Virus record (IMG/VR): IMGVR_UViG_3300024262_006261
Coordinates: 1-55,999 of that record
Origin: a virus
Lineage: Duplodnaviria > Caudoviricetes
DNA: 55,999 nucleotides
Reading direction: 5' to 3' (one strand)
Of the stretch, positions 3,391 through 39,864 are shown piece by piece; the first letter of the stretch is position 1; the number at the start of each line of letters is the position of its first letter. The notes beneath the pieces were generated by a model. That model was not told the origin of the DNA and made no database searches. It saw only the letters and a list, made by a program, of their open reading frames with translations. A program made the translations under genes and the position numbers.

Positions 3391-3391
3391 A

Positions 3392-3976: not shown

Positions 3977-3979
3977 TAA

Positions 3980-4234: not shown

Positions 4235-4278
4235 GAGTACAACACCTGATATATCTCATCCTCAATAAGGTTAATAAT

Positions 4279-4353: not shown

Positions 4354-4373
4354 AATATCATAGGAATATAACG

Positions 4374-6295: not shown

Positions 6296-6298
6296 AGA

Positions 6299-6541: not shown

Positions 6542-6554
6542 AAGGGAGTCTAAA

Positions 6555-11865: not shown

Positions 11866-11867
11866 TA

Positions 11868-13241: not shown

Positions 13242-13242
13242 A

Positions 13243-17425: not shown

Positions 17426-17429
17426 AATA

Positions 17430-18182: not shown

Positions 18183-18197
18183 TATTAAAATCTCCTA

Positions 18198-20698: not shown

Positions 20699-20714
20699 AA
20701 TACGACTTTCCTAT

Positions 20715-21434: not shown

Positions 21435-21444
21435 AATATATTCC

Positions 21445-22158: not shown

Positions 22159-22168
22159 AATTTTCTTT

Positions 22169-22882
22169 CTATCTAACTATAGATATATCATCCTCGGTAA
22201 AAGGTTGAAACTCTACTAATCTTTCTTCACCGACAGTACCATCACTTTTCATCCAACATTCTTCAAGAAATGCATAATCATCCAAAGCCTCTTTCGTTGT
22301 AGATAGTCGAGAAGAAGGAAGATTTACTTCTACCCTTTCTTCAACAATAGCACTAGGAACAAGAAAGGGGTACACTCCTGCTTCATAAGCACGCAGTATC
22401 AGATCTAAATCAGAACCTACATTAGTAAATCTTTTATCTAATCCTCCTAATCTGCTCCATAAACAACGAGGCATGATAGGAGTTAATCCTACCAATCCAT
22501 TTCCGTTCCAACAACCTTTTACAGGAGACATACCAGGTAAAGGAATAAATTGACTTGTAACCATAGCAGTCTTGTTTCTAGGTAATCTTTGAATATACCA
22601 ATACATCTCATTTAAGAATTCAGGGCTGTACATGACATCGTCGCCGGTAAACATTATATATTTACCTTTACTATTTCTACGAGCTGTCTCATAGCATTGT
22701 ATAGGATTTGCTTCACTATAAATATAATAAAAATTTTCCGGTAAATCAAATTCTGGTCTAACATTACCAGCAAACACAATTTCAAATGGAACCTTATTGT
22801 TCAACGATAATTGCTCGTACATATCTAACCAAAAGTACGTTTTAACCGCCGATGCAAACAAACTAATAATTGGTTTTTCCAT
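22169..22882 (-). CDS. GT2-like glycosyltransferase (paralog block B)
   Basis: 'ARRNSKGKY', 'GDD', 'GGLDKRF'. Confidence 0.75.
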   Translation of the reverse strand: MEKPIISLFASAVKTYFWLDMYEQLSLNNKVPFEIVFAGNVRPEFDLPENFYYIYSEANPIQCYETARRNSKGKYIMFTGDDVMYSPEFLNEMYWYIQRLPRNKTAMVTSQFIPLPGMSPVKGCWNGNGLVGLTPIMPRCLWSRLGGLDKRFTNVGSDLDLILRAYEAGVYPFLVPSAIVEERVEVNLPSSRLSTTKEALDDYAFLEECWMKSDGTVGEERLVEFQPFTEDDISIVR

Positions 22883-22891
22883 AATATCTTT

Positions 22892-23623
22892 CTATCTAAC
22901 TATAGGTATTTCACTGTCTAAATACGGTTGAACAGGATCTAATCTTTCTCTTCTAGGGCTTCCATCAGGATTAATCCACAAGGAATCTATAAAAGACCTA
23001 TCCTCCATTTTCCCTTTCGACGGATCTTGAATTAAACGAGGATACTCATGAGTCCTTTCTCTAACAATATGATCATCGGAAGGAACAACAAAAGAAAATC
23101 CCCCAGAAGATAAAATACGCATTTGTATATCTGTATCACTCCATAAACGATTAAATCTTCGGTCAACTCCACCTACTTCTTGCCAAACCTTCTTCTTGAT
23201 AAGAACGGCACAAGCTACTACCGCAGATTTAGAGCTATTCAAATCAAAAAACATATCGTAATCGGGAGTACCTGGATTAGGATTATCAGAAAATCTTGCT
23301 CCTATAATTACTCTCTCGTTCCACATCCTTAGCATATACCCATACATCGTATCTATAGTTCCAGGGGGAACAATTAAGTCGTCTGTAAAAATTAGCACAT
23401 ACTCTCCTTTAGCATTCCTACAAGCAATTTCAAAACACCGTGGAGGTATTTCTTCACTATAGATATGACAAAAATTCTCCGGTAAAGCGAAATTAGGTCT
23501 AGCATTCCCAACGAACACAATTTCAAATGGGGTTTTATTTCCATTGCAACACATAGCATAGAACTCTTGCCAAAGCTGGGGTCTTATGGAAGGTGCTATT
23601 ATACTTATTATAGGTGCGATCAT
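22892..23623 (-). CDS. GT2-like glycosyltransferase (paralog block B)
   Basis: Likely start MIAPIISI; 'ACRNAKGEY', 'TDD', 'GGVDRRF'. Confidence 0.75.
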   Translation of the reverse strand: MIAPIISIIAPSIRPQLWQEFYAMCCNGNKTPFEIVFVGNARPNFALPENFCHIYSEEIPPRCFEIACRNAKGEYVLIFTDDLIVPPGTIDTMYGYMLRMWNERVIIGARFSDNPNPGTPDYDMFFDLNSSKSAVVACAVLIKKKVWQEVGGVDRRFNRLWSDTDIQMRILSSGGFSFVVPSDDHIVRERTHEYPRLIQDPSKGKMEDRSFIDSLWINPDGSPRRERLDPVQPYLDSEIPIVR

Positions 23624-23624
23624 A

Positions 23625-24554
23625 CTACAAAACTCTCCATATAGTAAAAGAATATCCAGTATGATATAAACTACCACACGGAACATATTGTGTCTTGATC
23701 ATCTCTATCTTTTTCATTGCATGTAGATAGGACAATCGAGATATATAACCAAAAAGATAATTCCTTACTCTATCGTATTTTAATGCTAAATAATCAGATA
23801 AATTATCTTCCGAATACAATTCTGAATATGTATCCAAATTTATAACAATAGCCGGCTTCTTTTCTAGAATAAACTGAATAAAAGGCTCAAAATCCTTTCC
23901 TAGCTGTTCCAAAGAGCCTACAGTATAAAAAGCACTATTCTCTTTTATTTCTACAGCATAATCAGGATTAAACATATCAAAGACATGGCCAGTTATATTA
24001 TAATCTAATTTTTCGTGTAATAGGTTAAGTATTCGTTTTGTAGACTCTACCCAATCGAACCCGTGGAGTTCTTTATTAGGATACATCTTAGCCATACGTA
24101 CAAGGTCGTATCCTGTGCCACATCCAAACTCGTAAACATGATCAACGTCTTTTAGATAGGTCTCAAATAGCCAATTCTTAAGAACGGTTGTAAAATCTAA
24201 CTCAAAATTCTGATTCTCAGGATTAGCATAATCACCAAATATTCTTATTGGTTGTCCTGAACGAACATATTTAGGAACAAGAGTATCTATTGCGAACCCA
24301 CTATCTATGAACTCTTGTAGATTTTCATCCCAACCTTTTATCCACTTTGCTTTCTCTTCAGGACCAGAAATTGTCAATCCTCCTGAATCTATTTTTTTGA
24401 TGATACCAAGAATGAGATTGGTGTAGTCATCATGTGTAAGACCACTATATCTAAAATCGTGTGAATTAATCTCATCCAAGGTTCGAGGAGAGAACTCACT
24501 TGCATCTATTCCAAGTAGCTCCGCAAAAGAATCGACATCTAAATTATGAGACAT
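23625..24554 (-). CDS. class I SAM-dependent methyltransferase
   Basis: 'VYEFGCGTG' and 'LHGFDW'. Confidence 0.75.
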   Translation of the reverse strand: MSHNLDVDSFAELLGIDASEFSPRTLDEINSHDFRYSGLTHDDYTNLILGIIKKIDSGGLTISGPEEKAKWIKGWDENLQEFIDSGFAIDTLVPKYVRSGQPIRIFGDYANPENQNFELDFTTVLKNWLFETYLKDVDHVYEFGCGTGYDLVRMAKMYPNKELHGFDWVESTKRILNLLHEKLDYNITGHVFDMFNPDYAVEIKENSAFYTVGSLEQLGKDFEPFIQFILEKKPAIVINLDTYSELYSEDNLSDYLALKYDRVRNYLFGYISRLSYLHAMKKIEMIKTQYVPCGSLYHTGYSFTIWRVL

Positions 24555-25464
24555 TATTATTACCTCTCTCTATTGCACTAATAATACTTTCTTTATCTAA
24601 ATGATTTTGTTTATGTATCCATTCTCTACTACCTATCATTGTCGAATAATCCTCTTTTAACGCTAATCTTTTCAAAGGAATATTCAAATTATTGTCTGCT
24701 ATGATTTCACTAACTAAAGAACCTATGCCTCCTATTATAGAATGTTCTTCTAATGTTATTATCTGTTTTGCTTTCTTAATCTCGTCTAATATAAGAATAC
24801 TATACGGTTTGATCAAAAACAAGTCTATAATCCGCACATCGGATATTTCCTTTTGTACTTCTAAAGCCCTATGCACCAATGTTCCTGTTGTTATTATCAA
24901 TGTGGAGCCTTCTCCATGAACCATATACCCTTTAGCAAAATTCTGAGTATCTTGATATAGATTAGAATACTCCCCCTTATCTAATCTAACATAATTTACC
25001 CCGTCTAAAGTACCTTGAAAAAGACACCCTTTTACCACATTCCTAGCAATTGTTTCGTCCGACACGCTATAGATTCTTATATTAGGTAAAACTCTCATAT
25101 TAGCAATATCTTGAATACAATGATGTGTAGGACCATCTGCCCCATACATTACACCAGGACCCATACCTATAATTGTAACAGGAAGATTCATATAGGATAG
25201 ACTTACTTTTATTTGTTCATAACATCTCTGTACGATGAAAGGAGCTATTGCATAAACAAATACGTACTTTCCTTCTAATGCTAACCCTGCTGCGACATTT
25301 ATAAGATTCTGTTCTGATACCCCTACATTTATGTACTGCTGTGGAAGATCTTTCTTGAATTTCCTCAGACTAAAAGCATCCATATCTGCAGTTAGAAAAA
25401 GAACATTCGAGTCTTTATTGGCTATCTCATATAATTCATCAAAAAAAGTATCTCTTAAATCCAC
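24544..25464 (-). CDS. transketolase C-terminal subunit
   Basis: 'NVGVSEQN', 'DGPTHH' and 'LEEHSIIGGIGS'. Confidence 0.9.
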   Translation of the reverse strand: MDLRDTFFDELYEIANKDSNVLFLTADMDAFSLRKFKKDLPQQYINVGVSEQNLINVAAGLALEGKYVFVYAIAPFIVQRCYEQIKVSLSYMNLPVTIIGMGPGVMYGADGPTHHCIQDIANMRVLPNIRIYSVSDETIARNVVKGCLFQGTLDGVNYVRLDKGEYSNLYQDTQNFAKGYMVHGEGSTLIITTGTLVHRALEVQKEISDVRIIDLFLIKPYSILILDEIKKAKQIITLEEHSIIGGIGSLVSEIIADNNLNIPLKRLALKEDYSTMIGSREWIHKQNHLDKESIISAIERGNNNVS

Positions 25465-26267
25465 GGCAACTCCTTCTCTATTATAGATAACTCCTGCTCA
25501 GTAGGAATACCATGATGCCAATTCAATTGCTTTTCCATAAAAGATACACCCTTACCTTTAATTGTATTGGCTATAACAACTAAAGGCTTGTTTGAAACAT
25601 TTTTTATAGACAAGATATCATCAAAAGAATGACCATCTATAACCATAGTCTCCCAATTAAAGGCTTTCCATTTGTCCTCAAACGGTTCTAAACAATTACA
25701 ATCGTAGGTAAAATCAGTCACGCATTGTTTATTTCTATCTACTATTGCTATTAAATTATTTAATTTACAATGACCTGCAAATTGGGCAGCTTCCCAAACC
25801 ACTCCTTCATAGCACTCTCCATCTCCTAAAAGAACAATAGTCTTATAAGACCTCCTATCCATCTTACCGGCCAATGCTATGCCAACACCTACTCCAAAAC
25901 CATTACCTAAAGAACCAGTGCTAACTTCTATTCCTCGTATAGCATTATCTGGATGATTAAATAATCTACTACCATCGGAACAAAAAGAGTTCAACTCCTC
26001 AATAGAAATAAACCCTAAATCTTTTAATATAGGATATAAAGCTATGCACGCATGGCCTTTACTCAAAATGAATCTATCTCTATGTGGATAAGACCAAGAA
26101 GGTTCTTTAGAATTTAATCTAAACAACCCTCCATAATACAAACCTACTAATATATCTGTGCATGAGAAAGCACCGCCTATATGACCCTTCTTGGTTTTCA
26201 TAACAAGATCGACTGCTTGTCTTCTTACCCAATTAGCTTTCTGTTGTAATTTATGATTATCTACCAT
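25455..26267 (-). CDS. transketolase N-terminal (TPP-binding) subunit
   Basis: 'GHIGGAFS', 'DRFILSKGH', 'STGSLG', 'GDGECYEG' and 'TIKGKG'. Confidence 0.9.
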   Translation of the reverse strand: MVDNHKLQQKANWVRRQAVDLVMKTKKGHIGGAFSCTDILVGLYYGGLFRLNSKEPSWSYPHRDRFILSKGHACIALYPILKDLGFISIEELNSFCSDGSRLFNHPDNAIRGIEVSTGSLGNGFGVGVGIALAGKMDRRSYKTIVLLGDGECYEGVVWEAAQFAGHCKLNNLIAIVDRNKQCVTDFTYDCNCLEPFEDKWKAFNWETMVIDGHSFDDILSIKNVSNKPLVVIANTIKGKGVSFMEKQLNWHHGIPTEQELSIIEKELPWI

Positions 26268-26625
26268 ACTTTTCTAATAGTTCCTGAAATTGTTGAGATT
26301 CACAAAAACCACTGGCATTTGTCCTATAACTATCCTCATCCTCATGGTGTGTTGAAAATTCTACTATCTTACTTTTTTCTAAACCAGTAAACCTATGTTT
26401 TGCTCCCACGGGTATATCTATAGATTGAAAAGGAAGTATCTCTGCAAAGACTCCTTCTAGTTCTAATAAGACCCTACCTTCTATCACCAAAAAAGTCTCT
26501 AACTTTTTCTTATGATAATGCATACTACAATGAGCACTACGATATAAATTAAGCACCTTACCACAATACTTATCATTATTCACGTAGATATGTTCACTTC
26601 CCCAAACTTTTTCAACTACTCTCAT
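26257..26625 (-). CDS. cupin, sugar isomerase-like (mannose-6-P isomerase / lyxose isomerase type)
   Basis: 'KVWGSE', 'SMHYHKKKLETF', 'HRF' and 'EFST'. Confidence 0.75.
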   Translation of the reverse strand: MRVVEKVWGSEHIYVNNDKYCGKVLNLYRSAHCSMHYHKKKLETFLVIEGRVLLELEGVFAEILPFQSIDIPVGAKHRFTGLEKSKIVEFSTHHEDEDSYRTNASGFCESQQFQELLEKYGR

Positions 26626-27668
26626 TAAAAAGGTCCCTTAAACTTATTTTCATAACTATAAAACTCCTCCTTAGACAAATCTATAGTAGGTATCTCCAAC
26701 ATATCCTCTATCTCTCGTATTATATTGACAGCATTAGGGTAAAACTCATTCTCCAAATGCCTAGCAGTAGGACACGGTGTAGCAGCAAATCCTATTCTCC
26801 TAACAGCAATATCTAAATGATGAAAACAATGTTCGCTAACGGTTGCCGACAGCTCTGCACCAAATCCACAAAATGTCCAATCGTTATCTGCCACAAGACA
26901 TCTTTTAGTTTTTTTCACAGATTCGACTATTGTTTCTGTATCCAAAGGACATACCGTTCTTGGGTCTACAATCTCGACGTCTATACCTTCTCTTGCCAAT
27001 ATCTCTGCTGCCTTCAATGCTTCTACATTCATCCAAGACGTAGCAATTATCGTTATATCTTTTCCTTCTCTTAATACATTCGCCTTTCCAATAGGAGTCA
27101 AATAATAATTAGGCTGCACAACACCCTTTTGCCAATATAACCATCTATGCTCAAAGCAAATAACAGGATTATCATCTTCTATTGCCGACAACAATAATCC
27201 TTTTGCGTCGCAGGGTGTGGTCGGCATAATCACCTTTAATCCCGGAAAATGAGCAAAAACAGAATGACACGATTTACTATGTTGACACCCTTGTCCCCAA
27301 CCTCTTCCTACTATGGCTCTAATTACAATAGGAACATTCAATTGACCTCCTGTATTGTAATGATAAGTAGATATCATATTAGCTATTTGATTCATTGTCA
27401 ACAAAAGAAAATCTACTCTACTGTGAATATAGATAGGACGAAGTCCTTTTATTGCTGCTCCCAAACCAAATCCTGCTAGAGCATCTTCCGACAAAGGAGT
27501 ATCTATGCAAGTATCCTTTCCAAACCTCTCTGGAACCCGTTGCATACTGCCAAATATCCTCGTATGATCAGACACCCCTATTCCATAATTAAATATACTA
27601 TGGTTGTTTTCCATAGCTTGTACTGTGGCTTCATTCAACGCTTCACAATATGTTATCTTTCTATCCAT
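26625..27668 (-). CDS. TPP-dependent dehydrogenase E1 beta-like subunit
   Basis: Likely start MDRKITY; 'DTPLSE', 'GLRP', 'QHS' and 'NPVICFEHRWLY'. Confidence 0.9.
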   Translation of the reverse strand: MDRKITYCEALNEATVQAMENNHSIFNYGIGVSDHTRIFGSMQRVPERFGKDTCIDTPLSEDALAGFGLGAAIKGLRPIYIHSRVDFLLLTMNQIANMISTYHYNTGGQLNVPIVIRAIVGRGWGQGCQHSKSCHSVFAHFPGLKVIMPTTPCDAKGLLLSAIEDDNPVICFEHRWLYWQKGVVQPNYYLTPIGKANVLREGKDITIIATSWMNVEALKAAEILAREGIDVEIVDPRTVCPLDTETIVESVKKTKRCLVADNDWTFCGFGAELSATVSEHCFHHLDIAVRRIGFAATPCPTARHLENEFYPNAVNIIREIEDMLEIPTIDLSKEEFYSYENKFKGPF

Positions 27669-28656
27669 GAAATACATCCTCGTATAATTCTGAAGTATCT
27701 GCAAACGAAGATTCTTTAGCCAATTGTATGCTAGCAGCTATCTTTGTCTTGATTAGATTTTCCATTAGTTGAATTCGAATCTCCTCAACGTCCAAATTCC
27801 TTAGTGTTCTCCTTGTAATAACTAATGGATCATCCTCAAGAGCTTTTTTGTAGTCTGCTTCTGAACGGTAACCTCTATCAAAATCTTTATTTACTCCTAC
27901 ATGCTCTAAATATCTATAATATCTCGTATAAAGAAAACCAGGTTTGTGCTCTTTTTTAATTCTCTTATTTAGGAAAGAAGCAGCAGTATGAACACGAGTA
28001 GCATCTGTACTTTCGATACTCGTAGTTATACAATTAAACTTCTCTACTATCTTTTTTATATTTTCATAACCACGCCTATCGCTACTCGACGTGTGCATAG
28101 CCAACCCATTATCTTCACAAACAAACAAAATAGGAAGTTTTTGAACACAGGCTAGATTAATACTCTCCCAAAACACACCTTCTTCTGTTGCCCCGTCCCC
28201 AAAAAATACAACGGTTATATCATCTTCTCCTAAGAACTTCTGTCCAAATGCATGTCCCACAGCAACAGGAATAATACTACCAACTATTGCAGAAGCTCCC
28301 ATAAAGCCATATTCTGGATTGCACAAGTGCATAGAACCAGCCTTTCCTTTTGCTATCCCATTAGCTTTACCATACATCTCACAGAAAAACTTATCTGTCT
28401 CCTCCGTCTTAGATAGATATAATGCGTGAGAACGATATGTTCCAAATACCACATCGTCTTCTCCTAGTGCTTGACAGACTCCTGCAGATATATGCTCGCT
28501 TCCCATAGACATGTGCATAGGAGTTTTCATATCATCCTCAGAGTAATGCTCCTGTATTGCTATCTCTGCTTGCCTAGCAAGATACATCTTCTTGTATAAT
28601 GCCATATTCAACGCAATTTCTTCTTCCTGCATAAACCTCATAGCTTCTCTCTCCAA
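27661..28656 (-). CDS. TPP-dependent dehydrogenase E1 alpha-like subunit
   Basis: 'HMSMGSE', 'TYRSH', 'GSMH' and TPP motif GDGATEEG...EDN. Confidence 0.9.
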   Translation of the reverse strand: MEREAMRFMQEEEIALNMALYKKMYLARQAEIAIQEHYSEDDMKTPMHMSMGSEHISAGVCQALGEDDVVFGTYRSHALYLSKTEETDKFFCEMYGKANGIAKGKAGSMHLCNPEYGFMGASAIVGSIIPVAVGHAFGQKFLGEDDITVVFFGDGATEEGVFWESINLACVQKLPILFVCEDNGLAMHTSSSDRRGYENIKKIVEKFNCITTSIESTDATRVHTAASFLNKRIKKEHKPGFLYTRYYRYLEHVGVNKDFDRGYRSEADYKKALEDDPLVITRRTLRNLDVEEIRIQLMENLIKTKIAASIQLAKESSFADTSELYEDVFHG

Positions 28657-29612
28657 TAGGATAGAGTATCTTGTAGGGTGGTATCAAAATCTATCATAGG
28701 TTCCCATCCCGTTGCTTCTTTGAATTTATCTATACAAGGTATTTGAAGGGTCGCATCTGAAGGACGCATCCTAGACTTAACCATTTGTATTCGTATATCT
28801 TTCTTCACAGAAAAAGATATTAGTCTTTGTAGCATCTCGCCTACGGTCATAGTTGTAGAACCACCTATGTTATAGACTTCTCCCGGAGGGCACTTATTTA
28901 CGAGCAACCAATAAGCCTTAACCGTATCTCTAACATCGGCAAAAGTTCTGATGCTGGTCAAATTACCTACACTTACTATAGATTTTCTGTATCCCCGTTC
29001 TATATCTACTATCTGCTTAGCAAAATTAGATACAACAAATACTTCTCCCCTTCTCGGACCAGTATGTGTGAACATCCTTGTTCTTATTGTCTTGATTCCA
29101 TACGAAATCCAATATTGTAGTCCTAGCATATCTTCTGTTACTTTAGAAACAGCATAAGGAGACACGGGATTAAAAGGACAGTCTTCTTTGATAGGAACAT
29201 TTTTTGGATCTACCTGACCGTACACCTCTGAAGAAGAACAAATATGAACAATCGGGTCGTAATTCTCCGAAGACCTTAGCTGATTAACACATTCTAGCAG
29301 ATTAAGTGTACCCAACCCATTTACATCTAAGGTAGAAGCGGGAACTTGAAAACTGTATGGAACGTAAGACTGAGCAGCCAAATGAAATATGATATCTGGA
29401 TGCAATAAACTCAAGCATTTATATATAGAATGGCTATCTAAAAGGTCTCCATAGACCAAATGAATCTTATCCTCTATATGTTTTATGTTATCCCTAGGCG
29501 AACGCCATCGCGACAAACCATAGATATCTATCTCTTCTTCTAAATCTAATAGATAGTCGGCCAAATGACTACCTACAAATCCTGTTATGCCTGTTATTAA
29601 AACCTTTCTCAT
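28638..29612 (-). CDS. GDP-mannose 4,6-dehydratase-like SDR
   Basis: TGITGFVG, HLAAQSYV, SSSEVYG, intact SPYAVSK and GNL..IRTF.DVRD. Confidence 0.85.
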   Translation of the reverse strand: MRKVLITGITGFVGSHLADYLLDLEEEIDIYGLSRWRSPRDNIKHIEDKIHLVYGDLLDSHSIYKCLSLLHPDIIFHLAAQSYVPYSFQVPASTLDVNGLGTLNLLECVNQLRSSENYDPIVHICSSSEVYGQVDPKNVPIKEDCPFNPVSPYAVSKVTEDMLGLQYWISYGIKTIRTRMFTHTGPRRGEVFVVSNFAKQIVDIERGYRKSIVSVGNLTSIRTFADVRDTVKAYWLLVNKCPPGEVYNIGGSTTMTVGEMLQRLISFSVKKDIRIQMVKSRMRPSDATLQIPCIDKFKEATGWEPMIDFDTTLQDTLSYWREKL

Positions 29613-30289: not shown

Positions 30290-30933
30290 AACAACTCCTT
30301 TATATCCACAAATTTTATATGTTGATTAAGACGACTTATACTAGAACATGATTGGACCTCTACTTGAGATTTGAATTCTTTCAACTCTCTCAACCCTATT
30401 ATATATTCTTCGTAGTATTCGTCAAGTTTATTATTAAAATAATTTGCACTCTTTCCGTACCCTTCATGAAAGTGCGTTTGTTCTCCTTGGCAAACCAAGT
30501 CTAGTCCCAACAAATATATCTTCTCATACCCTAAAACAACAGCTAATTGAAAAGCACAATAAGCACTATTCTCACCGTTTCTAAATTCATTAAAGGTCAA
30601 TCCTATGCCACTTCGTTTCCAACTCTTAATCAATAAATCGAAGTCGCCTAATTTATATACAAGAGGTAGTCTTACATCCATAATCCGACCATTGACCTCT
30701 TGTAAGTAATCGTAACTTCTATTTATAACGAAACACTTCGTCGTCTTTATGCTTCGAAATGCAACCATATCTATCTTCTTCAAAAAGGTGTAATCACTAG
30801 TAATAAAATAATTAGGATTAGGTGTATAGAATATAGACCGATTCACTGTGATTGTATCTTCGTCCTTCAATAAGGAGAAGTCAAATCCTTTCAGAGAAGG
30901 GCCTCCAGCTACTATGAACACTCTATTTTTCAT
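30286..30933 (-). CDS. Maf/DUF115-like glycosyltransferase domain protein
   Basis: Likely start MKNRV; 'IVAGGPSL', 'TVNR' and 'LGYEKIYLLGLD'; paralog of the N-terminal domain of 7776..9227. Confidence 0.7.
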   Translation of the reverse strand: MKNRVFIVAGGPSLKGFDFSLLKDEDTITVNRSIFYTPNPNYFITSDYTFLKKIDMVAFRSIKTTKCFVINRSYDYLQEVNGRIMDVRLPLVYKLGDFDLLIKSWKRSGIGLTFNEFRNGENSAYCAFQLAVVLGYEKIYLLGLDLVCQGEQTHFHEGYGKSANYFNNKLDEYYEEYIIGLRELKEFKSQVEVQSCSSISRLNQHIKFVDIKELL

Positions 30934-31858
30934 TTCTATATAACTCCAACAAATCCACACCGTGGTTAGAATAGACTTCTTGTAGAGTCAACTTTGCATT
31001 CTTTTCTACAAACGCCTTATCTTCCTTCCCTTCCTCCTTTACTTGAGAACAAATCCTCTCTAAACCATCGAGATATGATTGTACTCCATTACATCTTTTT
31101 CTATATTGGTTAACCAAAAAATCAAAGTATGTATCATCTCCTAAAATATATGCACCTAATAGGAAATTATGCCAAAGGTCGTCATTATTCCAATAGTAAT
31201 CTCGTTTATCCACAAAATGAGCTATCTTCGCATTTGGATGCACATAGTTACGGTAACCAAACATCTCCATTTTGAAACCTACATAGGGTTCACTTCCTCC
31301 ATAGATGCCCAATGAGGGGTGAAAATTACCTACTTCCAAAAGTATGTTTCGAGATACGGCAGCCCCTGCCAACCCACTCATAAGACAAGGCCAAGGCTTA
31401 CTATCCTTATATTCATGTGTCCAATTACCCCAAAACTTTCTTGGATGTAAGGTATAACCATACGCATATTTTCTTTCCAATAGATATCTAACAGCAAACC
31501 AACATATACCCGCACTCTCATTACTATTCAATAACTCGATAGCTGCCCTAAAAGAACCAGACTCCACAAGTACATGAGCATCTAAAAAGAATAGATACCT
31601 TCCTTTTGCTTGTTCGGCTCCAAATCTTCTACTTTGGGCAATACTTCCTTTTTCTAATTCAAATAGACGTATGAATTTTTGTTTGGTTCTACCAAATTCT
31701 ACACCCCTATCTGTATTTTCATTAAATACCACAATAATCTCATGTGGAATTTCTAAAAGCTCCTCTTGAATACTGTCTATGGTAAACCACAATTGAGGAT
31801 GTTCGTTCCTTACAGGAATAATAACCGAAACTTCAGGAGTCAATATACCACCTCCCAT
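30923..31858 (-). CDS. GT-A glycosyltransferase with polypeptide GalNAc-transferase-like motifs
   Basis: 'VSVIIPVRNE', DxH motif 'FLDAHV' and 'IYGGSE..GFKMEMFG...IAHF'. Confidence 0.7.
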   Translation of the reverse strand: MGGGILTPEVSVIIPVRNEHPQLWFTIDSIQEELLEIPHEIIVVFNENTDRGVEFGRTKQKFIRLFELEKGSIAQSRRFGAEQAKGRYLFFLDAHVLVESGSFRAAIELLNSNESAGICWFAVRYLLERKYAYGYTLHPRKFWGNWTHEYKDSKPWPCLMSGLAGAAVSRNILLEVGNFHPSLGIYGGSEPYVGFKMEMFGYRNYVHPNAKIAHFVDKRDYYWNNDDLWHNFLLGAYILGDDTYFDFLVNQYRKRCNGVQSYLDGLERICSQVKEEGKEDKAFVEKNAKLTLQEVYSNHGVDLLELYRNEK

Positions 31859-32274
31859 TCAAAGCCACCTTCCCAAGGAAATTCTACAGATTTCTCACAA
31901 GATATTTTTATACTGTAGGGCCGAAAACGTCGAGCAACGAACAGCAATTTATTATTCTCTACGAATATAAACCAACGATGATCCCCCCTTCCAAATAATA
32001 ATTCTGCCTGCGGTGTAGGAAACCATAATGTTCCTTTTTTGCTCACCCTTATTAATTCTTTACACGCACAATCTGGATTAGAAACATGTTCTATTACATG
32101 ATGACATCTAGAATAAGCAAACTCCTTGTCAGCAAAGGGCATATTTTCCATAGAACACAAAACAAAATTGCCTTCTATCGAAGTATTTGGTTGATATATA
32201 TCCGTATAGGTATTGTATCCTACATGAGGACGTTCTCCACAACCCACATCTATTTTCTTACCATTCGTACTCAA
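31840..32274 (-). CDS. SAM-dependent methyltransferase (type 11-like)
   Basis: 'DVGCG', 'MPFAD', 'HVIEHV' and 'ELIRVSK'. Confidence 0.8.
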   Translation of the reverse strand: MSTNGKKIDVGCGERPHVGYNTYTDIYQPNTSIEGNFVLCSMENMPFADKEFAYSRCHHVIEHVSNPDCACKELIRVSKKGTLWFPTPQAELLFGRGDHRWFIFVENNKLLFVARRFRPYSIKISCEKSVEFPWEGGFEWEVVY

Positions 32275-33117
32275 CTACTTCTCACTTGAAAAATCTTTTC
32301 CATAATACTTCTCAAAATATTCAAATAATTCAGATACATCTTTTGTTTGCCTGGGCCACTGTTTCTTATAGGTTATCTGACGAATTTGTTCATACGTTTC
32401 ATCTATCTCCTTAGGATCCAAAGAATATTCAGGTTGTATATCCTTAGAATTTTGACCCTTAAAAAGATGAGCACAGACAACATCGGTGTGAAGTAAAACC
32501 TTTCCTCCCGATAACCACATCTTCAAAGCCCATTCTGGTCCATCCCCTCCGTAGAAATACAAATTGATATTATATCCTCGATAATAGAAATAAGTATTTC
32601 TTGTTATCATCCAAGCACAACCGGTAAATCCCATCATCTCTTGCACTGTTTGATTTTTTACTTCTTCTGGTAATTGATTGGAATTCAACCATTTTTCAAC
32701 AAGATCTCTATTCAAATAAACTTGCTTATGGGCAGCATTACAAGGTTTCCATGTCAATTCATCAATCATATCTATACAAGACACCACAATAGTCTTGTCT
32801 TTACATTGTTCTTTTAATTTGGTATCCCAACCTTGCGACATGGTGCAATGCCCATCTATAATAAATAGAAAACTACCCGTAGATTTCTGAGCCAAAAAAT
32901 TGAATATATGTCTCCGACCTACGATATCGTGGAATTGAACTTCTATATAAGGTTCCTTGGTTGGCTCTACCCCAGGCTCTTTCTGAGGACCGTCCAAACC
33001 TACAAGAATTTCTAAAGGTCCTTCTGCAGATTCCCTCAAACAATTAATCGTTCTTTGCAAATAAGCCTCTTCTCTTGAAGCTATTAGAACCGATACCACT
33101 TCTTCTTTACTACTCAT
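32275..33117 (-). CDS. GT-A glycosyltransferase with polypeptide GalNAc-transferase (GT27)-like motifs
   Basis: 'IIDGHCTMSQGW', 'VVSCIDMID' and 'YGGDGPEWALKMWLSGG...CAHLFK'. Confidence 0.7.
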   Translation of the reverse strand: MSSKEEVVSVLIASREEAYLQRTINCLRESAEGPLEILVGLDGPQKEPGVEPTKEPYIEVQFHDIVGRRHIFNFLAQKSTGSFLFIIDGHCTMSQGWDTKLKEQCKDKTIVVSCIDMIDELTWKPCNAAHKQVYLNRDLVEKWLNSNQLPEEVKNQTVQEMMGFTGCAWMITRNTYFYYRGYNINLYFYGGDGPEWALKMWLSGGKVLLHTDVVCAHLFKGQNSKDIQPEYSLDPKEIDETYEQIRQITYKKQWPRQTKDVSELFEYFEKYYGKDFSSEK

Positions 33118-34305: not shown

Positions 34306-34881
34306 TTAAGGTGTACAAACTTCTAAAGGTGATTTCATCCTATAGTAGCACGTACAAATTCCATAAGTACCTTGATCTTCCCAAGTATAATAATTAGGTG
34401 TATCCGGTTCATACCATATCCAAACAAATTCTTCAGGCGACAGGCATTTATCACCCGTACAATTACTTATACAATCTTCCTCAGTTTGGGGCGAAGAACT
34501 AAAAGACAAAGTCCCATACTGAGTCGTAGTCGTAGTCGTAGTCGTAGTCGTAGTCGTAGTCGTAGTTGTGGTCGTAGTTGTGGTCGTTGTTGTCGTAGTT
34601 GTGGTCGTTGTTGTGGTCGTTGTTGTCGTAGTCGTTGTAGTGGTTGTAGTGGTTGTAGTGGTTGTAGTCGTAGTGGTTGTTGTCGTGGTAGTCGTAGTCG
34701 TCGTTGTCGTAGTTGTGGTAGTGGTTGTGGTAGTGGTTGTAGTCGTGGTAGTCGTAGTCGTGGTTGTCGTTGTAGTCGTCGTTGTCGTAGTAGTCGTAGT
34801 CGTAGTCGTGGTTGTCGTGGTAGTTACAGGAGTAATAGTGTACTCTATCTCTTCTTCCATTATCAATTCTATATCTGTCAT
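34306..34881 (-). CDS. poly-threonine (mucin-like) protein with 6-Cys C-terminal domain
   Basis: 19-aa acidic leader, 101 consecutive Thr, 71-aa tail with 6 Cys; 6 nt downstream of the fibre gene and 3 nt upstream of the next GT. Confidence 0.85.
   Translation of the reverse strand: MTDIELIMEEEIEYTITPVTTTTTTTTTTTTTTTTTTTTTTTTTTTTTTTTTTTTTTTTTTTTTTTTTTTTTTTTTTTTTTTTTTTTTTTTTTTTTTTTTTTTTTTTTTTTTTTTTTTTTQYGTLSFSSSPQTEEDCISNCTGDKCLSPEEFVWIWYEPDTPNYYTWEDQGTYGICTCYYRMKSPLEVCTP
34522..34824 (-). repeat. ACN codon run encoding Thr x101, with (ACGACT)7 at its 3' end
   Basis: All four Thr codons are used; perfect hexamer array at 34522-34563. Confidence 0.95.
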
Positions 34882-34887
34882 GATTTA

Positions 34888-35931
34888 TTACGAGGGATCT
34901 ATATTATATCCACCGCCGTAGGCAATGTAATAGAAAGTAGCATTCGTTTCATTACCACGATCTTGATTACCAGGAAATGTTATTGTTTTGGTTGCAGTAT
35001 TCACAGTAAAAGAACGATCACCGGTTATTGTATTACCACTAACACCTGATTTATTGAAAGGCTGTGGAGGATCATGCTCCGCTATTTTATCTACTTGATT
35101 ATAATACCAAAATTGATCGCCATGAGTTTGGGTATTATTCCATACATGAACATATATAGGAGTGAAAGGAAGAACAACAGTTTTATCTACTTCACCCCCT
35201 GCTGCCGAACCGGAAGCAAATTGTGTTTGATGATGGTCCATATTGATAAACGGACGAAGGTCTGTTATATCGTCTGTCGATATATCTGCACTTGCTGCTA
35301 CGGATGCTATCACTAACTTCCCATCAAAGGCCGTACTGGTTGTTATTCCTACAACCCCGGTATAGGTATCTATATAAATATAAACAGTACTACCAGAATA
35401 AGCACTCAATTCTATCTGTTGGTCGTATATGGTATAAATAGTAGAGGGAGATTGCACTACACCTCTTCTAATAAATACCTTCGTACTGGTTCCTCTATTA
35501 TCTTCTACCACTTTTAAGTACAGGTCCATCGTATTAGGTGTACTTCTCGTATTGTAATCTATACCACCAGCAGTATATCTCCCCAATATCAAATCATTAT
35601 CAAGCGGAGTAGCTACACTCTTCAACTCCATATAATCTGCAGTTGCACTACCTGTATATGTCCACCTTGCTACAATATAATGATTCAATGTTACAGAAGA
35701 AATGGTGTAAGCAACCGCAGTTTCTACACGAACTTGGTGACTTCCATCTGTCGAATGTTTTATTTCACATACGAGAGGAGACACGGTTATATTAGAACCG
35801 GACCGCGATAGCCAACCTCCTTTGTATATTCCTGTTAAACGAATATCCTTGAACCGCTTATTTACGACAGTAGAATCTACCCTATCATAATATTTTATGG
35901 TTACGGTTTGAGAACCTACATTGCTTGCCAT
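34888..35931 (-). CDS. putative tail fibre / baseplate-attached protein
   Basis: Follows baseplate genes; beta-rich T/S/G composition; 'ITDLRPF' motif typical of fibre N-terminal domains. Confidence 0.55.
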   Translation of the reverse strand: MASNVGSQTVTIKYYDRVDSTVVNKRFKDIRLTGIYKGGWLSRSGSNITVSPLVCEIKHSTDGSHQVRVETAVAYTISSVTLNHYIVARWTYTGSATADYMELKSVATPLDNDLILGRYTAGGIDYNTRSTPNTMDLYLKVVEDNRGTSTKVFIRRGVVQSPSTIYTIYDQQIELSAYSGSTVYIYIDTYTGVVGITTSTAFDGKLVIASVAASADISTDDITDLRPFINMDHHQTQFASGSAAGGEVDKTVVLPFTPIYVHVWNNTQTHGDQFWYYNQVDKIAEHDPPQPFNKSGVSGNTITGDRSFTVNTATKTITFPGNQDRGNETNATFYYIAYGGGYNIDPS

Positions 35932-35957
35932 AATAAACTCTCCTTATATATAATAAA

Positions 35958-37142
35958 TTAATCTGTGCTAACATATACATATATCCACAATTCCAATCCA
36001 GTATCCTTATAAATCTCTGGGAATAGGGCTACATAGGTTATAGCCGACCCTTCATACAAAGCTAATTCTGTCACTCCTGATAATACGGTAGCAGCCGGTA
36101 TCCTAATAGTGTATAGAACTCCAGAAGCATAGCTTGTCGTATCCACAGTTATATCAGTTCCAGTCTCAACTATATTTTCTAAGTCCCACCCTACAGTATT
36201 CAAAGATGCTTCTGCTATTTCTAATCTCTCGGCCAATGTATAGCATTTATTACCTGTTCCTAACTTCCATGTATCTATATCAAATTGCTCTGTTCCCACA
36301 CCTTGATCAAAATACCATGTCTCTGCTGGATCATCAAAGTAAATATCAGCCCCTCCCTCATCTGCACGAGAATCAAAGTATATGATAGTCGTAGTAGGAT
36401 CACGCAATCTCCAAGTAACCCAACCCGATTCGACATTTTGAGTAATTCCACCTCCCTCTTGTCCAGAATCTAGCAACGAAGTAGACAATAATGTAGTACC
36501 ATTTATTATCAAACTCAACTGAATAATTCTCGTCGGAACTGTATGAGCAGGCCTTATCCTTTCTATATAATCAAATATATCTTCATTTTGAGAATCGGAC
36601 CAAAGATAAGGATAATCGGTAGAATCTTCGCCTTCATACACAACATCTAACGATACATTGAAACCAAAATGAGGACTCTTATAATATGTAGAATCTAGAC
36701 CAGGGGGATTCTCATCCTCACCTCCAACAAACCATTCTTTTGGAACAAAAGTTTCGTAGTCATCTGTATAAAGGTCATAAATATCTATTGTCTTTCCTAT
36801 AATACCAGCCACAATATTCATTGCTTGGTAGGTTCCCTTCATTTTATACCAATCAACAGCATTGGTTATTTCTCGGCGGGATTCTACCTCAGTTCTTGCA
36901 TCTGTATCCAACAATTTGACATCGACCAAGGTTGCTAGATGTTTAAGATACTCCTCCCTAACCTTGTAAGGATCTACAATAAGATTAAGGTCTTCTATGT
37001 CCTGTAACCAACCACCTACAAGCAGGCTGAGTTCCTCTACAAGCTGAACAAGAATAGGAGAATCTCTAAACTTCTCAGGAATATATTGGAGCAAGTCTAG
37101 GTCGTATTTCTTACTCAATATTATATCGAACTCTATACGCAT
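35958..37142 (-). CDS. baseplate wedge protein (P2 gpI/T4 gp7-like)
   Basis: 'YLKHLA', 'YKMKGT' and 'IRPAHT' motifs. Confidence 0.7.
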   Translation of the reverse strand: MRIEFDIILSKKYDLDLLQYIPEKFRDSPILVQLVEELSLLVGGWLQDIEDLNLIVDPYKVREEYLKHLATLVDVKLLDTDARTEVESRREITNAVDWYKMKGTYQAMNIVAGIIGKTIDIYDLYTDDYETFVPKEWFVGGEDENPPGLDSTYYKSPHFGFNVSLDVVYEGEDSTDYPYLWSDSQNEDIFDYIERIRPAHTVPTRIIQLSLIINGTTLLSTSLLDSGQEGGGITQNVESGWVTWRLRDPTTTIIYFDSRADEGGADIYFDDPAETWYFDQGVGTEQFDIDTWKLGTGNKCYTLAERLEIAEASLNTVGWDLENIVETGTDITVDTTSYASGVLYTIRIPAATVLSGVTELALYEGSAITYVALFPEIYKDTGLELWIYVYVSTD

Positions 37143-37143
37143 A

Positions 37144-37653
37144 TCACATAGCCTTAATCTTTATAGAAAACGTCAAATCTTCCCCATCTTGTATAGTAAT
37201 CGTGGTGGGTAGAGAAAGAAAACTCAATAAATAACCTACATCTGTCGCTGATGTAGCCATAAAAGCCTTATTCAAAGGTCCTATCAAACCTCCCGAAGCT
37301 GTTATAGTCATTTCCTTCGATGTTATTTGATAGTCCCCCTCGTTCAATTCCAAGGTAGGAAAACTGACTTCACTCCTGGGTAACTCTGCTCTAGCATATC
37401 CATTAACACCACTATCTGGTTCGTTTGGAATATGAACCAATTGTGAGTCTTCGTTTATCTCCCCATAGCAAAATCCTATATAGAAAGAAGTAGGAACATT
37501 GCTCCCTCTAAAAAAGGCATCCAGTACTATCATCTCCCCTTCGTTCACAAGAGCATTTCGCTTTGTTATCTCCCAAAGCACCTTCCCTTTACGTATTTGC
37601 TTGATATTCCAAATGCCTTCAAAAAATTTATGTTTGCCCATTATAATCTCCAT
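37144..37653 (-). CDS. putative baseplate/tail structural protein
   Basis: 'NALVNEG' and 'GYAR' motifs; baseplate context. Confidence 0.55.
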   Translation of the reverse strand: MEIIMGKHKFFEGIWNIKQIRKGKVLWEITKRNALVNEGEMIVLDAFFRGSNVPTSFYIGFCYGEINEDSQLVHIPNEPDSGVNGYARAELPRSEVSFPTLELNEGDYQITSKEMTITASGGLIGPLNKAFMATSATDVGYLLSFLSLPTTITIQDGEDLTFSIKIKAM

Positions 37654-37657
37654 TTTC

Positions 37658-39442
37658 TTAACTATCTAATGCAATAGAAGTCATATCTACCGTACTATTA
37701 TACATCCGACAAACCTGCCGATTAGATACTATTATATCTCCATCTTCGTCCTGTTGATAACGAACATAAACGGTATCCGATGGTGTAGAATCAAAGCTCA
37801 AAGTTATAACTCCAGTGGTATAATTAATTGTTCCTGTAAAATTATATGCAGCTTCCAACACAGTAAATGCTTCGGAGCCGTCATCTATACCAACCTGAGT
37901 ATCTCCTACATAAACCTTGACAGACTCTTCTAATACCTCTGTTGCCTCTAATGTATCGCTGTAACTGGTACCGGAACCATCTATTTCCTGTCTTATTTCT
38001 AGTGTCATGTGATGATATTTTACTGCAGACAAACTATCCACAACATCTACCAAATTAGAATGATACTTAGGTGTTCCTAATTTTGTGGTAGTTCCTAACT
38101 GAAATCTAGCCAATAAAGCTGCAATGATATTAGCTTGGGTTTCTGTTAGGGATTCTCCTTGGTTAACCACTACCTCTAATACTGGAACGATATCCAAAAT
38201 TACAGGGTCTATAAACTCATATTTGACTGTGATAACAGATTGATTATATAGAGCAGTAGCTATTTCTCCCTCCCTTGTTGTAGTCAAGCCTTCCCAACTC
38301 TTCCTTAAGATACATAATCTAACAGTATTGAACAAATCATAGTTAGGAGGAGACTCTTCATTTTCTCCCCAAACATTAGCATTAGCTACATCGCTCATAT
38401 TTTCTAAGATAGCTATAAAATCATTTCTTGTTACTGCTCTATCTCCTGTAGCAAAGACTCTAGGAGCTTCTGATTTAATTTCTTCTATACTCTCTTCGGA
38501 ATCGCCGCCTTCAAACCCAAAAATAGTAGTATCATCACTATCCGAATCGTCTTCTGGATTGGTTACAGATATATTAGTAACCACATCTGTATTAGCATCG
38601 AATATAGTAGATTCTATCGTTGTTATCTTATCGGGTAGGAATATATTACCTTTCTCTCCTACAGTCTTAACATAGGTTATCCTTATCTTGGAATTAAGAG
38701 GAGGGGCCTTACCCTGCGTTCCGTTGCCAAATCGTAAGGTTAAAGAATTATCTAACTCCTGTATCAATGTAAAGTGTTCGTCGTCGGTCTCAGAAGCAAT
38801 AAAAGACGATACCTTCTCCCATTCATCCCAATTCCCCTCAGGATTATCAACATCTCTTATCTCGTCTATTTCTACCTGGAATATGTCGTTTTCCGTATCT
38901 GTATCAGAAATAAAATATACCTGATTAGCAGCACCATTAGACGTGATTTCTTTTACAACCATCTTTCCTTGTATTGCTTTGAGGTCTACACTTGTATCAC
39001 CTACAGCAATAGCCCCTCCTCCTCTAATCACACCGGGTCTTTCCGGATCAGTACTCTTTTCACCCACAAAGTATTCTGTCCCATCCGACGAAGAACATAT
39101 CACACCTATAGGGATACCCACACTAACAGAAGACTTCGTTGCTATAGTAAATCTTAGTGTGCCTGTAGCAGACGTCTTTCTCTTGACTGAATAATTTATG
39201 AGTTTGACTAAATTGACAACACTAGAATAATTTTGTGCTGTGTCTAGATAGCATTCTTCCGCTCTTCTCTCTAAATAATAAAGAACAAGATTAGCCACGA
39301 ATGCGTAAAATTCGATAAGCATCTCTCCCGTAGAAGAAACGTAAGCATCTTTCCATGCATCCCTTAATTTAAGTCTATCTTGTAACTGCGATACAAGATT
39401 ATCAAAATCGTAATCTGTATAATTAAGCAAATTGGTAGCCAT
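37658..39442 (-). CDS. baseplate wedge subunit (T4 gp6 / baseplate J-like)
   Basis: 'YTDYDFD', 'FGNGTQGK.P', 'GGDSEESIEEIK' and 'RAVT..DF'. Confidence 0.85.
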   Translation of the reverse strand: MATNLLNYTDYDFDNLVSQLQDRLKLRDAWKDAYVSSTGEMLIEFYAFVANLVLYYLERRAEECYLDTAQNYSSVVNLVKLINYSVKRKTSATGTLRFTIATKSSVSVGIPIGVICSSSDGTEYFVGEKSTDPERPGVIRGGGAIAVGDTSVDLKAIQGKMVVKEITSNGAANQVYFISDTDTENDIFQVEIDEIRDVDNPEGNWDEWEKVSSFIASETDDEHFTLIQELDNSLTLRFGNGTQGKAPPLNSKIRITYVKTVGEKGNIFLPDKITTIESTIFDANTDVVTNISVTNPEDDSDSDDTTIFGFEGGDSEESIEEIKSEAPRVFATGDRAVTRNDFIAILENMSDVANANVWGENEESPPNYDLFNTVRLCILRKSWEGLTTTREGEIATALYNQSVITVKYEFIDPVILDIVPVLEVVVNQGESLTETQANIIAALLARFQLGTTTKLGTPKYHSNLVDVVDSLSAVKYHHMTLEIRQEIDGSGTSYSDTLEATEVLEESVKVYVGDTQVGIDDGSEAFTVLEAAYNFTGTINYTTGVITLSFDSTPSDTVYVRYQQDEDGDIIVSNRQVCRMYNSTVDMTSIALDS

Positions 39443-39864
39443 TATTGCACTCCTGAGGCGAATACTGAATTATGCTGAAATATTTGGTCATATCCTCTAA
39501 TAGAAAAAGATACCGTAATATTTACCTGATGCCGTTCCGGCATTCTTGTTATATCTATTCCATTAACTATAACTCTATCATCATAACGAGTTATCTTTGT
39601 CATACATTCTTCCCTAATTAAATCTTCTAAATCCTCCGATAAGGGATTGAATACCAATCGTTGTATATGAGAAGCAAAACCAGGTCTCATCACCCTTTCC
39701 ATTGGATACGTTCTAAGTATATTATCTATAGAAGTCCGAACAGCCTCTACATTTATCACCTTCTTTATACCACCCTCTTTATCGGGTATTAGCTCGTGGT
39801 GCAAATCGCTCCACACCTCTCCCACAGTTCTATATATACCTTCTACATGCTTTTGTCTTTGCAT
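39442..39864 (-). CDS. baseplate wedge / sheath initiator (T4 gp25-like)
   Basis: 'SIDNILRT..MERVMRPGF' and 'YDDRV'. Confidence 0.85.
   Translation of the reverse strand: MQRQKHVEGIYRTVGEVWSDLHHELIPDKEGGIKKVINVEAVRTSIDNILRTYPMERVMRPGFASHIQRLVFNPLSEDLEDLIREECMTKITRYDDRVIVNGIDITRMPERHQVNITVSFSIRGYDQIFQHNSVFASGVQ

Follow-up and report, generated by a model that had tools for sequence, protein, structure and literature searches.

Genes at the Locus

The stretch of DNA analysed here, referred to as the window, covers positions 1 to 55,999 of the IMG/VR virus record IMGVR_UViG_3300024262_006261 and is 55,999 nucleotides in length. Three of its genes are the main subject of this report. Two encode the predicted soluble glycosyltransferases GT-1 and GT-2, which have a GT-A fold and resemble the catalytic domain of the eukaryotic polypeptide GalNAc-transferases (ppGalNAc-Ts, family GT27). 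The third encodes a protein with an uninterrupted run of threonines, referred to as the poly-Thr protein, which is the proposed acceptor. The coordinates of these and of the neighbouring genes are listed in Table 1.

The poly-Thr protein is composed of an acidic N-terminus of 19 amino acids, 101 consecutive Thr residues, and a C-terminal domain of 71 amino acids with six Cys residues. A hydropathy scan found no transmembrane-like or hydrophobic segment in it. The codons of the Thr tract are mixed (ACG 31, ACT 30, ACA 23, and ACC 17), with at most two identical codons in a row. Because the 101 Thr residues are encoded by such scrambled codons, the tract is, on the evidence of its sequence, selected at the protein level. 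Slippage and an assembly artefact were considered as origins of the tract and are ruled out by the same scrambling. In one DNA run, contigs cover the tract with no alternative joints; this run is possibly the source sample of the window, so it does not count as independent. An Atlas search with the C-terminal 72 residues returned only low-score leads to small beta-sandwich phage-tail proteins.

Motifs of GT-1 and GT-2

A sequence-only reading of this DNA had assigned ppGalNAc-T motifs to both open reading frames (ORFs), and every motif string it listed is present in their translations. In GT-1, the D-x-H motif lies in FIIDGHCTMSQGW (D88-G-H90, nucleotides 32848-32856), VVSCIDMID starts at residue 111, and the distal block reads YGGDGPEWALKMWLSGG...CAHLFK, with H217 at nucleotides 32467-32469. 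In GT-2, the D-x-H motif lies in FFLDAHV (D93-A-H95, nucleotides 31574-31582), and the distal block reads YGGSEPYVGFKMEMFG...IAHF, with H214 at nucleotides 31217-31219. In HMMER alignments, the D-x-H, VV.(P/C).ID.ID and (W/Y)GG...E segments and the distal His align to their GT27 counterparts in the manner that had been proposed. The Mn2+ ligands of GT27 enzymes are the D-x-H motif and the distal His. Both are present in the GT-1 and GT-2 families, aligned to the D-x-H and GH.F positions of GT27.

Other features of GT27 are missing, two of which the sequence-only reading had already flagged: the lack of a lectin domain and an altered Glu in the WGGE motif. No C-terminal ricin-type lectin domain was found; no lectin family of Pfam was matched, GT-1 and GT-2 consist of the catalytic domain only, and their structural models align only to the catalytic part of GT27 chains. 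The Gal/GalNAc-T motif WGGENxE, with both acidic residues, is found in neither protein, which read YGGDGPE (GT-1) and YGGSEPY (GT-2). Neither protein contains a transmembrane segment (maximum Kyte-Doolittle mean over 19 residues of 0.94 for GT-1 and 1.26 for GT-2). The type II membrane and secretory-pathway character of GT27 is also lacking, and the genes lie in a phage context. Because they lack three features of GT27 (a lectin domain, the membrane or secretory setting, and an unaltered WGGENxE), GT-1 and GT-2 are filed as a GT27-like sister family of GT27 and not as proven members.

Sequence Comparison with GT27

When GT-1 was searched against all PDB sequences with phmmer, all 15 matches at E<=10 were ppGalNAc-Ts, the best with an E-value of 5.2e-7. 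For GT-2, ppGalNAc-Ts made up 14 of 26 matches, aligned over residues 8-236, and GalNAc-T4 was the best match (1.2e-5). Two other GT2-type ORFs of the cluster, GT-3 and the glycosyltransferase at 9228-9926, gave no GT27 match. The GT27 signal is therefore specific to GT-1 and GT-2.

Family profiles, labeled A4 for the GT-1 family and A3 for the GT-2 family, were also compared with the PDB. With A4, 16 of 18 matches were GT27 enzymes, at E-values of 6e-17 to 1e-11, as against 3.2e-6 for the best match outside GT27. With A3, the GT27 matches span positions 4-250, whereas the GT2 matches extend only over approximately positions 3-128, the N-terminal nucleotide-binding half. For GT-2, GT27 is the best and sole full-length match, yet the N-terminal halves of GT2 enzymes score similarly. 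A comparison of GT27 and GT2 profiles had been named as a check, and the profile searches against the PDB favour GT27; both proteins are more similar in sequence to GT27 than to other glycosyltransferase families.

General domain models are less specific. Pfam places both ORFs only in the broad family PF00535 (Glycos_transf_2), with 59.8 bits for GT-2 and 25.4 bits for GT-1 at a gathering cut-off of 23.3. The PF00535 model presumably also covers GT27 catalytic domains, so a match to it has no power to separate GT2 from GT27. NCBIfam gave only weak, sub-threshold matches to polysaccharide glycosyltransferases for GT-1 and GT-2.

Predicted Structures

AlphaFold2 models of GT-1 and GT-2 have a mean pLDDT of 85.1 and 91.8, respectively. 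For both models, all matches listed by Foldseek against the PDB are ppGalNAc-Ts. A VIA-align structure search was made against 48,161 representative chains, and the best 50 rows were inspected. GT-1 aligned best to GalNAc-T1 (Z 26.4, 269 residues aligned, rmsd 3.1) and then to TgGalNAc-T3 of Toxoplasma (Z 24.6), followed by WrtF (Z 18.2). GT-2 also aligned best to GalNAc-T1 (Z 28.5, 287 residues aligned, rmsd 2.9) and TgGalNAc-T3 (Z 27.7), and the next chain has a Z of 20.3. For both models, the gap between GT27 and any other GT-A family is thus 6-8 Z units in favour of GT27, and the GT-A fold of each is closest to the solved GT27 domains. The superposition on a GalNAc-T catalytic domain that the sequence-only reading had called for bears out the proposed likeness. 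The structurally nearest viral proteins are unnamed GT-A proteins of uncultured tailed phages.

Residues 222-230 of the GT-1 model, directly after the distal His, have a pLDDT below 50. This low-confidence loop of GT-1 sits where the mobile catalytic loop of GT27 enzymes is located. The best sequence and structure matches of GT-1 and GT-2 over the whole catalytic domain are eukaryotic GT27 enzymes (for example PDB 8v9q, 2ffu, 6pxu, and 8uhv), with which they share the D-x-H motif and distal His, VV.x.ID.ID, and the (W/Y)GG...E...W..GG...H.F(K/R) block. Taken with the sequence comparison, there is very little doubt that both proteins are GT27-like.

The GT-1 and GT-2 Families

A word-indexed search returned 10 relatives of GT-1. 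An exhaustive profile search returned 492 representative clusters at E<=1e-30 and 3,963 at E<=1e-10, and a broader profile, for which 8,000 candidates were scored, returned at least 4,939 clusters (90% identity) at E<=1e-10. The members found with the broader profile are nearly all unnamed metagenomic proteins. The 147 best representatives of the GT-1 family yielded 156 aligned domains. Every one of these has D88, H90, and H217, and 154 have E195. The family consensus is W-G-x-x-G-x-E ... W..GG ... (A/G)-H-(L/W)-F-(R/K). GT-1 family proteins are often fused to CmcI/Methyltransf_24 domains. Some contain two or three tandem glycosyltransferase domains and are 900-1,350 amino acids long. An N-terminal CxxC...CxxC is present in 56 of the 147 top representatives and is missing from GT-1 of the window.

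The search for the GT-2 family returned 20 matches in which D93, H95, YGG.E, and H214 are kept; D93, H95, and H214 are invariant in the A3 alignment. An hhalign comparison of the two families (probability 98.5%, E 1.9e-15) marks them as distant paralogues.

In viral contigs, GT-1 and GT-2 as single-protein queries found nothing, whereas the A3 and A4 alignments did find related loci. The relatives are spread over many phages that have not been cultured. A profile search of genome contigs with A4 returned only one short contig of a metagenome-assembled genome (MAG) and one fragment. Among deposited phage genomes, tblastn gave no match for GT-1 and two weak matches for GT-2. The isolated soil phage Tunturi_4 of Tunturiibacter (PP885687.1) encodes a GT-2-family protein, gp2 (1567-2565), with 25.5% identity and the motifs LDNHC and YAGEEPY...H. 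Its gene lies between those of the terminase and the portal. The Tunturi_4 portal (2574-4307) ends in a P/S/T-rich tail in which 13 of 30 residues are Thr or Ser.

Co-occurrence with Thr/Ser-Rich Proteins

All stop-to-stop ORFs of at least 50 amino acids were scanned in 81 viral loci with relatives of GT-2 or GT-1. An ORF was scored as Thr/Ser-rich if it contained a 30-residue window with at least 21 Thr and Ser residues, and a clear family member was defined by an HMM score of at least 100. A Thr/Ser-rich ORF was found in 47 of the 76 viral loci with a clear family member (73 ORFs in 1,336 kb) and in none of the five with weak matches only (64 kb). None was found in 119 random viral loci (1,013 kb), which were drawn with an arbitrary 14-mer, or in 74 metagenome loci whose sole match was a generic one to the N-terminal part of GT2 (602 kb). 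Of six metagenome loci that do encode a family member (33 kb), two had such an ORF. The difference between 47 of 76 and 0 of 119 has a Fisher p of 2e-25.

When the 83 family loci were clustered at 60% glycosyltransferase identity, a Thr/Ser-rich ORF was present in 25 of 47 clusters. These can be sorted by type into clusters with the GT-2 family only (18 of 32), the GT-1 family only (5 of 12), and both (2 of 3). An earlier scan had covered the 64 strongest GT-2-family loci, where each of the 65 Thr/Ser-rich ORFs shared the strand of the glycosyltransferase. The two genes lie within 100 bp of each other in 12 of 47 loci, compared with a mean of 2.1 under random, non-overlapping placement, and none of 1,000 permutations reached 12.

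The Thr/Ser tracts of the related loci are 60-270 residues long and occur in proteins with tail-fibre, tailspike-like, or ConA-like lectin domains. Their genes adjoin those for the tape measure, tail fibre, portal, and capsid in tailed phages of widely differing kinds. Some related phage loci (L205, 9612-12614; L016/L017, 14975-19927; and L022, 10981-14871) encode proteins of 1,000-1,650 amino acids that are almost wholly Thr/Ser tracts. Single runs in these proteins reach 270 residues and are separated by short conserved spacers.

The Nearest Relative and the Order of Genes

The nearest relative of the locus, L203, is a 3.4-kb metagenome contig with homologues of GT-1 (45% identity) and GT-2 (61% identity). 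Its genes encode, in order, a 257-amino-acid T23-P-T71 protein with a Cys-rich C-terminus, the GT-1 homologue, a 153-amino-acid methyltransferase-like homologue, and the GT-2 homologue. The Thr tract is about 95-101 residues long in both the window and L203 despite substantial divergence. BLASTP gave no alignment between the two poly-Thr proteins, whose C-terminal domains are unalignable, or between the ORFs upstream of them. A likeness of the N-termini can be seen by eye only (IELIMEEE..TIT in the window and IELVMEEQ..TIT in L203). Homologues of the methyltransferase-like protein lie within 600 bp of a GT27-like gene in seven of the 83 family loci (L003, L004, L005, L006, L008, L013, and L203), compared with none of the 119 random loci and none of the 74 generic GT2 loci; the alignment behind the HMM used for this search included one unrelated ORF of 73 amino acids.

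A peptide acceptor is supported indirectly, because the family co-occurs with Thr/Ser-rich ORFs and because synteny with the poly-Thr gene is kept in L203. It is fairly likely that at least one of GT-1 and GT-2 O-glycosylates the poly-Thr tract.

The sequence-only reading had placed both glycosyltransferases beside the poly-Thr gene. This is roughly correct. The exact adjacency does not stand, since GT-3 lies between GT-1 and the poly-Thr ORF, and GT-2 lies two genes further downstream. The order leads to an alternative in which the poly-Thr protein is glycosylated and GT-1 and GT-2 only extend the chains, with the first sugar added by another enzyme of the cluster such as GT-3, whose gene directly abuts that of the poly-Thr protein. 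The cluster offers further candidates for this step in at least eight additional GT-like ORFs, a paralogous pair need not consist of two initiators, and the Glu of WGGE that contacts the sugar varies within the GT-1 family. In L203, however, the poly-Thr gene and the gene of the GT-1 homologue have no GT-3 gene between them. A scan of ten ORFs, nine of them from L013 and located around its Thr/Ser-rich gene, turned up no glycosyltransferase gene other than the GT27-like one. Each family also co-occurs with Thr/Ser-rich ORFs in the absence of the other, as the cluster types above show, and the solved structures closest to GT-1 and GT-2 are all peptide-initiating enzymes. Chain extension alone is considered unlikely, and initiation by GT-1 or GT-2 is the reading retained.

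Genomic Context

The window is, judged by its genes, a contractile-tailed phage, and a novel one because its best matches in deposited phages reach only 22-24% identity. The minus strand carries all genes from position 7776 to the end of the window. Going downstream, these are the tail and baseplate genes, followed by those of the poly-Thr protein, GT-3, GT-1, the methyltransferase-like protein, GT-2, two transferase-like proteins, and the sugar enzymes (Table 1).

Table 1. Features of the window in order of transcription of the minus strand, followed by those at the edge of the sugar cluster.
Feature	Positions	Strand	Length	Remarks
Tail sheath	47907-49541	-
Baseplate hub	45003-45731	-
Baseplate wedge subunit	39442-39864	-
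Baseplate wedge subunit	37658-39442	-
ORF	within 34888..39864	-	169 aa	within tail/baseplate stretch
Tail protein	35958-37142	-
Unannotated ORF	34888-35931	-	347 aa	directly upstream of poly-Thr gene
Poly-Thr protein	34306-34881	-	191 aa	proposed acceptor
Thr tract	34522..34824	-	101 codons	within poly-Thr gene
GT-3	33145-34302	-	385 aa	GT2-type glycosyltransferase; directly downstream of poly-Thr gene
GT-1	32275-33117	-	280 aa	predicted soluble GT-A glycosyltransferase, like GT27 catalytic domain
Methyltransferase-like protein	31840-32274	-	144 aa	between GT-1 and GT-2; Pfam Methyltransf_11, E 2.7e-7
GT-2	30923-31858	-	311 aa	predicted soluble GT-A glycosyltransferase, like GT27 catalytic domain
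MptE-like protein	30286-30960	-		PHROG 'alpha-2,3-sialyltransferase'
GT64-like transferase	29627-30289	-
Sugar-nucleotide modification and glycosyltransferase cluster	7776..29612	-	~22 kb
TPP-enzyme pair 1	26625-28656	-		E1_dh alpha/beta-like
TPP-enzyme pair 2	24544-26267	-		split transketolase; cupin gene between the two pairs
Four consecutive ORFs	20715-23686	-	237-264 aa	no Pfam family
ORF	14061-14858	-	265 aa	no Pfam family
B12-radical SAM enzyme	11868-13241	-
SbcC/SbcD-like nuclease genes	4305-7354	+		AAA_23/SMC_N and Metallophos domains; opposite strand

The sugar-biosynthesis genes of the window total approximately 27 kb. The cluster proper contains SDR dehydratases and epimerases, an RmlC-like epimerase, two pairs of TPP enzymes, a cupin, an aldo-keto reductase, a B12-radical SAM enzyme, methyltransferases, and several GT-like ORFs. 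The two TPP pairs and the B12-radical SAM enzyme suggest, from their sequences, that two-carbon-branched and C-methylated deoxysugars are made. Two of the cluster ORFs can be described further: the ORF at 22169-22882 has a weak PHROG match to a glycosyltransferase, and the ORF at 22892-23686 has an N-terminal hydrophobic segment. With the dehydratase at 28638-29612 as the query, no related viral loci were found.

A second alternative is that GT-1 and GT-2 act on a non-protein acceptor (an envelope polysaccharide, a teichoic-acid-like polymer, a lipid-linked glycan, or a small molecule) and that the poly-Thr tract is an unglycosylated flexible spacer. The broad Pfam assignment and the weak NCBIfam matches to polysaccharide glycosyltransferases agree with this. 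So does a bacterial enzyme that, in the accessible passages of PMC11032452, is labeled a polypeptide N-acetylgalactosaminyltransferase and likened to the wall-teichoic-acid GalNAc transferase TagN. Most viral loci with poly-Thr also contain no member of the GT-1 or GT-2 family. Against a non-protein acceptor, a Pfam scan of the cluster ORFs matched no flippase, polymerase, or lipid-carrier family, and no strongly hydrophobic cluster ORF stood out by its hydropathy maximum (one window per ORF). Further against it are the 47 of 76 family loci with Thr/Ser-rich ORFs, as opposed to none in either control set, the synteny with the poly-Thr gene kept at 45-61% protein identity, and a fold and sequence closest to peptide-glycosylating enzymes. 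A non-protein acceptor is therefore thought improbable, and a peptide acceptor is preferred.

Phage glycosyltransferases are also known to glycosylate DNA, according to the accessible part of PMC12619734, which cites Pyle et al. 2024, and GT-1 and GT-2 could in principle modify hypermodified bases of the phage as protection against restriction. No DNA-base hydroxymethylase or related gene was found among the ORFs scanned, and the best 50 structural matches of GT-1 and of GT-2 included no T4-type DNA glucosyltransferase, an absence that is no exclusion in itself. The position of the genes within the tail module and the association of the family with Thr/Ser-rich proteins are the two grounds on which DNA glycosylation was rejected, and it is regarded as extremely improbable.

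Discussion

The following course of events is proposed. GT-1 and GT-2 would be cytoplasmic, lectin-less relatives of GT27 that use the D-x-H motif and the distal His to hold an Mn2+ ion, through which a nucleotide sugar is bound. During infection, at least one of them would place a sugar on a Thr hydroxyl in the 101-Thr tract of the tail-module protein. Other glycosyltransferases and methyltransferases of the 27-kb cluster would extend the glycans and decorate them with unusual sugars (deoxy, branched, or methylated) that the cluster supplies. The end product would be a mucin-like bottle-brush protein on the virion. We infer that the acceptor is a peptide, that the enzymes are initiators with retaining chemistry, and that the product becomes part of the virion. 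The donor, likewise a matter of inference, is probably not always GalNAc.

Several observations weigh against glycosylation of the poly-Thr tract by these enzymes. The identity of GT-1 and GT-2 to GT27 is only 15-21%. The first Glu of WGGE is variable in the GT-1 family, where the aligned position is E in 39 domains, Q in 29, M in 18, V in 17, and D in 16. GT27-likeness alone is no proof of a peptide acceptor, because the same enzyme label has been given to the TagN-like enzyme in the accessible passages of PMC11032452. The gene that touches the poly-Thr gene in the window is that of GT-3 and not that of GT-1 or GT-2. Common descent links the loci, and the co-occurrence counts are accordingly not a tally of independent events. 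Pairs of genes within 2 kb are not enriched (16 observed, 18.8 expected). No Thr/Ser-rich ORF was found in the fetched flanks of 29 of the 76 family loci, including 12 of the 38 with full 20-kb stretches.

The reciprocal search weighs in the same direction. At least 119 viral loci have 20 or more consecutive ACN codons; of the 119 listed, two have a family member at a score of at least 100 and four at a score of at least 50. The listed stretches (L284-L402) are about 8.7 kb long on average and include several giant-virus MAGs, and 104 of them contain an in-frame Thr/Ser-rich ORF. Because only two of the 119 listed hold a member, poly-Thr tracts are much commoner than the GT-1 and GT-2 family and do not depend on it. 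The tracts of loci with no family member are either unglycosylated or served by other enzymes.

A more far-reaching picture is possible and is offered tentatively. Tailed phages may build true mucin-type glycoproteins, in which the 191-amino-acid protein would form a tail fibre. A short N-terminal stretch, conserved to the eye, would anchor it, the 101 Thr residues would be a rod stiffened by dense O-glycans, and the fast-evolving, Cys-rich C-terminus would serve as the distal knob. A large sister family of GT27, carried mostly by viruses (at least 4,939 clusters at E<=1e-10, often fused to sugar O-methyltransferases), would add the first sugars in the cytoplasm of the bacterium. This family would be the prokaryotic and viral counterpart, and possibly the evolutionary source, of the animal mucin initiators.

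The closest known system by enzyme is GT27 itself, which, to our knowledge, is regarded as a eukaryotic invention tied to the Golgi. The presumed acceptor, a homopolymeric Thr tract, is of the kind found in mucins. Unlike GT27, GT-1 and GT-2 are phage-encoded, would work in the bacterial cytoplasm, and have no ricin-type lectin domain, signal anchor, or secretory setting. The accessible part of PMC3417536 treats mucin-type glycosylation as an animal system that apicomplexans acquired laterally.

Among phages, the nearest functional precedent may be the glycosylation of the C-termini of mycobacteriophage capsid and tail-tube proteins. In 2023, Freeman et al. (Cell Host Microbe) reportedly found that mycobacteriophage glycosyltransferases modify short C-terminal tails of capsid and tail-tube subunits. 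This was, as far as we know, the year in which phage virion glycosylation was first reported, and then only for such short tails. The accessible part of PMC12619734 likewise describes mycobacteriophage virions glycosylated by phage-encoded glycosyltransferases. In both cases phage-encoded enzymes would modify the structural proteins of the phage inside the host. Unlike the mycobacteriophages, the window has a dedicated 101-Thr protein in the tail module, GT27-like enzymes, and a 27-kb sugar cluster.

Among bacterial systems, the serine-rich repeat adhesins of Gram-positive bacteria would be the nearest analogue. These fibre-like glycoproteins are O-glycosylated in the cytoplasm by GtfA/GtfB, which are encoded beside the substrate gene. 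There, GT-B-fold enzymes (GT4) initiate, and an accessory Sec system exports the substrate. Shared with the window are a long Thr or Ser tract and dedicated enzymes encoded nearby and acting, in the proposed scheme, in the bacterial cytoplasm. The differences are that GT-1 and GT-2 are GT-A proteins like GT27 and that the poly-Thr protein has no signal peptide. Giant viruses (Mimivirus with its fibrils, and the chloroviruses) encode sugar-nucleotide pathways and glycosyltransferases that decorate virion proteins independently of the host. They differ from the tailed bacteriophage described here in their eukaryotic hosts and glycosyltransferase families. Some loci with 20 or more consecutive ACN codons belong to giant-virus MAGs, mostly with no member of the GT-1 or GT-2 family.

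A full-text literature search, which did not cover supplements, turned up no paper describing GT27-like enzymes or poly-Thr glycoproteins of phages. The accessible parts of PMC12801897, PMC3417536, and PMC13738210 contain neither. Virus-encoded protein glycosylation is itself already known; what would be new, as read from these sequences, is that it is carried out by GT27-like enzymes.

If this is correct, a cytoplasmic GT27-like family with no lectin domain is carried by many uncultured phages. Its genomic link to proteins with Thr/Ser tracts of 60-270 residues in tail modules would mean that phages have repeatedly settled on mucin-like bottle-brush fibres as a structural solution. The compact, soluble enzymes would lend themselves to the production of densely O-glycosylated polypeptides in bacteria. 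The presence of gp2 in the isolated soil phage Tunturi_4 makes part of this reading testable at the bench. The origin of mucin-type O-glycosylation would, in turn, gain a testable prokaryotic and viral outgroup.

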